From positions 1 to 63,971 of the forward strand of contig JBBRNT010000006.1 of NCBI GenBank assembly GCA_038230095.1: 63,971 nt of DNA, written 5' to 3'. This document shows positions 10,803-10,986 of the stretch, in pieces. Within the stretch, counting starts at the first letter, position 1; every line of letters starts with the position of its first letter. The stretch is from Candidatus Saccharimonadia bacterium (GTDB taxonomy: Bacteria > Patescibacteriota > Saccharimonadia > UBA4664 > JBBRNT01). The translations under genes and the position numbers were made by a program. The notes under the pieces are model-generated. The model saw nothing but the letters and a program-made list of their open reading frames with translations. It was not told where the DNA came from and did not search any database.

Positions 10803-10831
10803 TTGACGCCAGAAAGTAGATTTGGTAATTT
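10803..10831 (+). promoter_or_regulatory. Sigma70-type promoter for candidate ncRNA-1
   Basis: TTGACG-17 nt-TAATTT with an extended TG. Confidence 0.65.
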
Positions 10832-10837
10832 TGATTC

Positions 10838-10986
10838 AGGAAGACCCTAGAGATCAGTTTTGCTCTTGTGTGGCCAGTCAAGTTAAGAATATCGTTCGAA
10901 AGTTCGTTTGTTAGTTCGTAAGCCACAACGGCGCAAAGTCTTCCTAGCCCAGTCCACCGAAAAAGACCCACCTGCGGGTCTTTTTC
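10838..10986 (+). ncRNA. Candidate structured ncRNA or cis-regulatory leader (RNA-1)
   Basis: Begins at the predicted TSS. AGGAAGAC/GTCTTCCT, TTTGC/GCAAA and TGTGGC/GCCACA nested pairings, then terminator GAAAAAGACCC-6-GGGTCTTTTTC; no ORF. Confidence 0.55.

Follow-up and report, generated by a model that had tools for sequence, protein, structure and literature searches.

A putative lineage-specific non-coding transcription unit between a predicted kinase gene and a VOC gene in a Saccharimonadia genome

Introduction

Among the bacterial small RNAs (sRNAs), the type I 3'UTR sRNAs, for example DapZ and MicL of enterobacteria, overlap the 3'UTR of an upstream gene and are transcribed from a promoter of their own. 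sRNA genes can be predicted from the combination of a promoter and a terminator, but in such predictions an orphan pair that is not conserved often turns out to be a false positive. To our knowledge, hardly any post-transcriptional regulators have been described from the candidate phyla radiation, and our literature search for published sRNAs or 6S RNA from Saccharibacteria or other members of this radiation found nothing relevant. Here, we report on an element of predicted promoter, potentially folded RNA and terminator in the genome of a Candidatus Saccharimonadia bacterium, which lies outside every described family.

The locus and its source data

The window, i.e. the whole stretch of 63,971 nt that was analysed, is intergenic over 11% of its length, and the genome is small and compact. 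The homologues of the VOC protein and of Ddl bear Saccharibacteria or Saccharimonadales names, which supports the assignment of the organism to this group. The element is situated in a gap of 321 nt, which separates an AAA_33-family kinase gene from a VOC/Glyoxalase_6 gene, both on the + strand. The features of the locus are as follows:

10230-10763, + strand: AAA_33-family predicted kinase gene, upstream neighbour, with intact C-terminus
10803-10808, + strand: -35 box TTGACG, 5/6 match to TTGACA
10823-10831, + strand: extended -10 element, consisting of TG (10823-10824), G and TAATTT (10826-10831), the latter after a 17-nt spacer from the -35 box
10838-10839, + strand: predicted transcription start (A or G), placed by promoter geometry 7-8 nt after the -10 box
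10838-10845, + strand: 5' strand of the predicted closing helix, AGGAAGAC, pairing with 10938-10945 (base-pair probability 0.7-0.8)
10846-10858, + strand: one-sided bulge of 13 nt, CCUAGAGAUCAGU, unpaired in the predicted minimum-free-energy fold
10859-10874, + strand: 5' strands of the inner stems (UUUGC, CU, GUGGCC), pairing with 10922-10937 (probabilities 0.9-1.0)
10875-10921, + strand: A/U-rich, loosely paired apical region with three GTTCG copies
10922-10945, + strand: 3' partners of the inner stems, followed by the second strand of the closing helix, GUCUUCCU, at 10938-10945
10946-10958, + strand: single-stranded linker of 13 nt, AGCCCAGUCCACC, 5' of the terminator
10959-10993, + strand: intrinsic terminator GAAAAAGACCC-ACCTGC-GGGTCTTTTTC followed by CTTTTGG (pair probability ~1.0)
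11056-11061, + strand: -10 box TACACT of the VOC gene itself, kept in the related loci L001 and L002, marking a separate transcription unit 3' of the terminator
11085-11450, + strand: VOC/Glyoxalase_6 family protein gene, downstream neighbour, with its own terminator at 11491-11520

An independent Logan unitig, built from the one public run with this DNA, covers positions 10195-11302 with zero differences; hence, the arrangement of the element is not an assembly chimera. Among public sequencing runs, the element was found in one, a DNA metagenome from sediment, and a 10-kb window used as query also recovered the source run only. No RNA-seq run containing the element sequence was present among the public runs searched. 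A 13-nt direct repeat (10722, 10990) had raised the idea that the kinase gene carries an insertion at its end, which was rejected because the C-terminus of the kinase aligns with its homologues.

Several observations concern the surroundings of the element. It sits among small stress- or detoxification-type genes (8353-13776), which encode DUF1059, AHSA1/SRPBCC, ArsR, 3-methyladenine glycosylase, the AAA_33 kinase, the VOC protein, an HD-like protein, TrmB and DUF1801. The order of these genes is not kept in relatives, which suggests a variable genome region. Near the VOC promoter, CTAGGGGC occurs twice (11020, 11060), and a GC-rich hairpin lies between this promoter and the terminator of the element. 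The TACACT box together with the ribosome-binding site of the VOC gene is retained in L001 and L002 despite unrelated upstream genes (window positions 11018-11067).

Predicted promoter and terminator

The element had been described in the sequence-only reading as a TTGACG-17-TAATTT promoter, whose predicted +1 opens an 8-bp helix (10838-10845 with 10938-10945) closing nested stems and a loose core with three GTTCG repeats, followed by a strong terminator and, about 100 nt further downstream, the VOC gene. All of this was found again: the promoter boxes are present at these distances, the helix pairs perfectly, the nested stems and the repeats exist as sequence features, the terminator belongs to the strongest ones of the window, and position 11085, 99 nt behind the element, is the start of the VOC gene. 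What had been missing from that description is the TG one base 5' of the -10 box, which gives the promoter an extended -10 geometry. With T-12, A-11 and T-7 present in the -10 box and TG at -15/-14, the site was nevertheless not returned by a strict consensus scan, because TAATTT matches TATAAT at only 3/6 positions. The looser motif TTGAC-N18-TANNNT matches six times in the window compared to 1.03 matches expected, and all six, including the predicted promoter of the element, are intergenic. One of the matches (39388-39416, - strand) directly precedes the tRNA-Gly gene, and three further intergenic ones have a gene of the same orientation downstream. The promoter motif of the element exceeds chance.

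Another promoter-like site, TTGACC-17-TATTTT at 8191-8219 (+ strand), was noticed within the 389-nt intergenic region 7964-8352; it is located ~127 nt 5' of the DUF1059 gene (8353-8574), which would then have a long leader.

The terminator hairpin (10959-10986), with 11 bp in its stem and 6 nt in its loop, is followed by CTTTTGG. It is located 196 nt past the stop codon of the kinase gene, compared to 11-41 nt for six other strong terminators of the window. Between the kinase stop codon (10763) and position 10959, no other terminator-like site was detected on the + strand. The kinase gene thus lacks a terminator of its own and is followed by this one only; its mRNA probably ends here as well, and the element would simultaneously represent the kinase 3'UTR. 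On this prediction, the kinase transcript must cross the element to reach its terminator.

Fold, repeats and coding potential

The inner arms of the predicted hairpin (10859-10874 and 10922-10937) are 75% complementary, and the three GTTCG copies are found at 10894-10898, 10902-10906 and 10914-10918. When the body was folded without the terminator, it reached a z-score of -1.44, and 17 of 200 shuffled sequences folded equally well; it is the terminator that brings the whole unit to a z-score of -2.98. Moreover, some 5-mer occurs three times within 40 nt in 417 of 5000 dinucleotide shuffles (8%). Given this z-score of the body and the frequency of such triplets in shuffled sequences, the rod-like fold and the GTTCG repeats have no statistical weight. 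Among the features of the element, only promoter and terminator exceed chance.

The claim that the element holds no open reading frame (ORF) is correct only in the sense that none looks coding, because mechanical ORFs are present, namely of 30 and 51 aa on the + strand and of 74 aa on the - strand. The latter (10747-10971) is uninterrupted and spans the whole element. In all three ORFs of the interval, the codon log-likelihoods were negative and the GC1-3 profiles flat, without GC3 skew. For the 74-aa ORF, the GC3 value is 0.43 compared to 0.635 +/- 0.075 for the genes of the window, and the codon log-likelihood amounts to -0.175 per codon compared to +0.01 to +0.44 for genes. A HMMER search of 1.84 billion representative proteins with this ORF gave two matches with E~1e-6, which are spurious, as they add up from weak similarities to repeats within FG-GAP-type proteins. 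The interval is non-coding.

Search for homologues and synteny

The sequence-only reading named no matching Rfam family, and this proved right: Rfam 15 gave no match for positions 10700-11120 at E <= 10, and with the gathering score it reported two tRNAs only for the whole window. A covariation analysis of homologues had been proposed as well, for which the searches provided no material. Neither nhmmer nor blastn found a homologue of the element in the collected related loci. A covariance model built from the single element sequence and its predicted structure (R1) retrieved the query alone from 93 related loci (1.18 Mb) and the window, all remaining hits being chance hits with E>2. The public collections were scanned with three exact or near-exact (degenerate) sequence patterns, of which GTTCGAAAGTTCGNNNGTTAGTTCG gave no match in the metagenome and genome collections, GCCACANNGGNGCAAAGTCTTCCT none in the metagenome collection and AGGAAGACCCTAGAGATCAG none in the viral collection. 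Likewise, blastn of the element against plasmids and phages returned nothing. In the source metagenome, a single contig matches at 80% identity or more.

The public close relatives belong to one lineage, with 89% identity for the VOC protein and 87% for Ddl, while the next best values are 76% and 61%. Because only this one close lineage is public, the conservation test has little power. The element is absent from the VOC loci L001-L004 and from 80 genome loci, and also from the kinase loci L005, L006 and L087-L093. In the closest relative, L001, an unrelated 233-aa gene replaces both kinase gene and element and ends 40 nt upstream of the VOC gene; homology with the window starts there at ~11050 and takes in TACACT and the ribosome-binding site as well as the VOC gene and its downstream neighbour. 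Behind the kinase homologues (65% identity at most), other genes begin within 1-136 nt. None of the relatives examined has the gene order of the window around the two flanking genes. On these comparisons, the element is an apparent single-copy orphan at a synteny breakpoint.

Other RNA candidates in the window and in relatives

Two more regions of the window could encode RNAs. The first one is a GC-rich structured-RNA candidate of ~360 nt on the - strand (38905-39296), situated between a tRNA gene and a terminator:

39295-39369, - strand: tRNA-Gly(CCC)
38914-38937, - strand: terminator of the structured-RNA candidate region

The candidate consists of long near-perfect hairpins in series (z = -9.0; none of 100 shuffled sequences folded as well), has no Rfam family and is probably co-transcribed with tRNA-Gly from the promoter at 39388-39416. 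In a close relative (L094), a homologous region is found between a Mur ligase gene and ddl, whereas in relatives with 61% Ddl identity the Mur ligase gene adjoins ddl without tRNA or RNA in between. In a pairwise alignment of the two regions, evaluated with the predicted fold of the window sequence, 15 pairs had changed on both sides and still pair; among the remaining pairs, 10 had changed on one side, 51 were unchanged and 47 were broken. This region is a far better candidate for a structured RNA than the element at 10838-10993. The same relative bears three tRNA-like genes (L094 positions 2777-3017) at the place where the window has the one tRNA-Gly(CCC). According to ARAGORN, one of them has the anticodon UCA ('SeC', with only 74 nt) and another an odd 2-base anticodon; this could point to a suppressor-like tRNA or to a degenerate copy.

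The second region is another orphan unit (45193-45425, + strand) between two minus-strand genes, which encode a polysaccharide deacetylase (43216-45042) on one side and a NUDIX protein (45431-45928) on the other. It starts with TTGACA-17-TAGTAT with an upstream TG (45193-45221), followed by ~195 nt and the terminator AAACCCCGC-TATCC-GCGGGGTTT with a T-run (45397-45421). Its 5' end pairs with a segment just 5' of the terminator, the fold has a z-score of -3.27, and Rfam gave no match. Paralogy with the element was considered and rejected, as the alignment revealed no real similarity and the covariance model R1 did not match there.

Furthermore, the leucyl-tRNA synthetase gene of the window (983 aa; 34532-37483, - strand) encodes an apparent NUDIX domain (Pfam PF00293, E 1e-10), which is inserted at residues 397-517, directly behind the editing domain.

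Possible functions of the element

We tentatively favor, with somewhat less than even confidence, the view that the element is a lineage-specific non-coding transcription unit of ~155 nt, which would share its terminator with the kinase mRNA. The initial proposal of a ~150-nt sRNA is thereby kept in part: promoter, non-coding stretch and strong terminator speak for it, while homologue, covariation and exceptional fold are lacking. According to this model, a sigma-70-type promoter with near-consensus -35 box and extended -10 element would start transcription at ~10838. The first 8 nt of the transcript would at once pair with 10938-10945 and close an imperfect hairpin, and the intrinsic terminator at 10959-10986 would release an RNA of about 153-156 nt. 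The same sequence would double as the 3'UTR of the kinase mRNA, i.e. it would be organised like the 3'UTR-overlapping sRNAs that are transcribed from a promoter of their own. If functional, the RNA would most likely act in trans via its predicted single-stranded segments, for which the 13-nt bulge (10846-10858), the A/U-rich apical region and the linker (10946-10958) are candidates. The second orphan unit at 45193-45421 suggests that such units occur in this genome.

Concerning possible targets of the RNA, an RNAduplex scan against 70 translation-initiation regions yielded implausible full-length duplexes and was discarded as uninformative.

Nearly as likely is the assumption that the interval is a non-functional spacer, i.e. 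a long kinase 3'UTR of ~225 nt with a fortuitous or insignificant promoter and a hairpin as it would form in any A/T-rich stretch of 110 nt. It is consistent with the body folding no better than shuffled sequences, with the insignificant GTTCG triplet and with the lack of conservation in any search. Moreover, the interval is located at a synteny breakpoint, L001 becomes homologous only from ~11050 on, and the kinase gene has no other terminator; since the gene order is a different one in each of the relatives, the DNA may represent rearrangement junk. However, the -35 and extended -10 geometry belongs to a class that marks the promoters of tRNA and other genes, with exclusively intergenic matches. 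The distance of 196 nt between stop codon and terminator is also an outlier compared to the usual 11-41 nt, and the genome is small and compact, with little intergenic DNA in the window.

A more far-reaching version of the non-coding transcription unit would be a genuine regulatory RNA restricted to a lineage of environmental Saccharimonadales, in which the closing helix guards the 5' end and the GUUCG loops or the bulge bind a protein or mRNAs. We regard this as unlikely. If true, few sRNAs of the candidate phyla radiation would have been defined before it.

Still less probable is a function in cis. The element was also proposed to act as leader or attenuator of the VOC gene, in which a ligand or a GUUCG-binding protein would set the read-through past 10959-10986. 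Element and VOC gene are indeed on the same strand and only 99 nt apart, and the 5' segment AGGAAGACCC resembles the 5' arm of the terminator, AAAAAGACCC, which means that it could in principle pair with the 3' arm of the terminator. Short repeated motifs also recall the leaders bound by TRAP or HutP. However, the alternative pairing is 12.7 kcal/mol worse (-31.5 compared to -44.2 kcal/mol) with a probability of ~0, and the 3' strand of the closing helix forms only 5 bp with the 5' arm of the terminator. The VOC gene has its own -10 box 3' of the terminator, conserved in L001 and L002, and in the closest relative a coding gene ends 40 nt upstream of it. We inspected 22 VOC loci, 20 of which are named as Saccharibacteria/Saccharimonadia-type or Patescibacteria MAGs. 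Most of them have a -10-like box 25-35 nt 5' of the ATG, pointing to short leaders, and in none of the 22 was the element found in the 90 nt upstream or anywhere in the flanks. With no competing structure, a separate VOC promoter and no element upstream of the homologues, the attenuator is unsupported, and we consider it very improbable that the element is the leader of the VOC gene.

We give even less credit to a function at the level of DNA, in which the GTTCG copies, spaced by 8 and 12 bp, would be transcription factor sites, e.g. for a response regulator controlling the neighbour genes. Direct repeats spaced close to one helical turn would fit, but a triplet of this kind is not significant (8% of shuffles), the sites are not conserved, and they are located 55-80 bp 3' of the only promoter-like site and ~150 bp 5' of the VOC promoter. 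Finally, a minus-strand gene of 74 aa or a small plus-strand peptide is hardly credible: the ORF is uninterrupted over 74 codons across the whole element, but its GC3 and codon log-likelihood are unlike those of the window genes, it begins within the loop of the terminator and extends into the end of the kinase gene, its only two matches are weak and repeat-inflated ones to FG-GAP-like repeat proteins, and the predicted plus-strand transcript contains no ATG and only GTG and TTG starts without Shine-Dalgarno sequence.

Should the non-coding transcription unit prove real, an episymbiotic lineage with reduced genomes would have a species-level sRNA, and ordinary promoter-plus-terminator prediction would work in such a lineage. 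As it stands, the element is one unvalidated candidate of small practical value. More useful are the negative results, namely that the element is unlikely to regulate the VOC gene and that its fold and repeats have no statistical weight.

Comparison with known systems

The element shares features with several groups of described RNAs. Like 6S RNA (RF00013), it is predicted to be small and rod-like, with pairing 5' and 3' ends and an independent promoter and terminator. Unlike 6S RNA, it has no RF00013 match even at E <= 10, its structured body comprises ~108 nt instead of ~180 nt, and it is predicted to have a one-sided bulge of 13 nt and a floppy A/U-rich tip, whereas 6S RNA has a two-sided central bubble and long stable stems. 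The repetition of GUUCG in a loosely structured region is reminiscent of protein-sponge sRNAs such as CsrB/RsmZ, but there are only three copies, which are not significant, the motif is not GGA, and Rfam gave no match. The succession of promoter, structured RNA, terminator and same-strand gene, together with the repeated motifs, is also found in terminator-antiterminator leaders (riboswitches; TRAP, HutP). In contrast to those, the element lacks a competing antiterminator, the downstream VOC gene has its own conserved promoter, and none of the homologous genes examined is preceded by the element.

The type I 3'UTR sRNAs differ from the element in that their promoter is inside the coding sequence, whereas that of the element follows the stop codon. 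There is also no sequence relationship to the DapZ/MicL type, and the Rfam model of DapZ has no match at the locus. Nevertheless, the element agrees with type I 3'UTR sRNAs in having a predicted promoter of its own near the end of the upstream gene, a terminator probably shared with that gene, a non-coding sequence and a size in the range of about 80-300 nt. Hence, among the systems described so far, the element comes closest to a generic sRNA gene of promoter and terminator or to the type I 3'UTR sRNAs.
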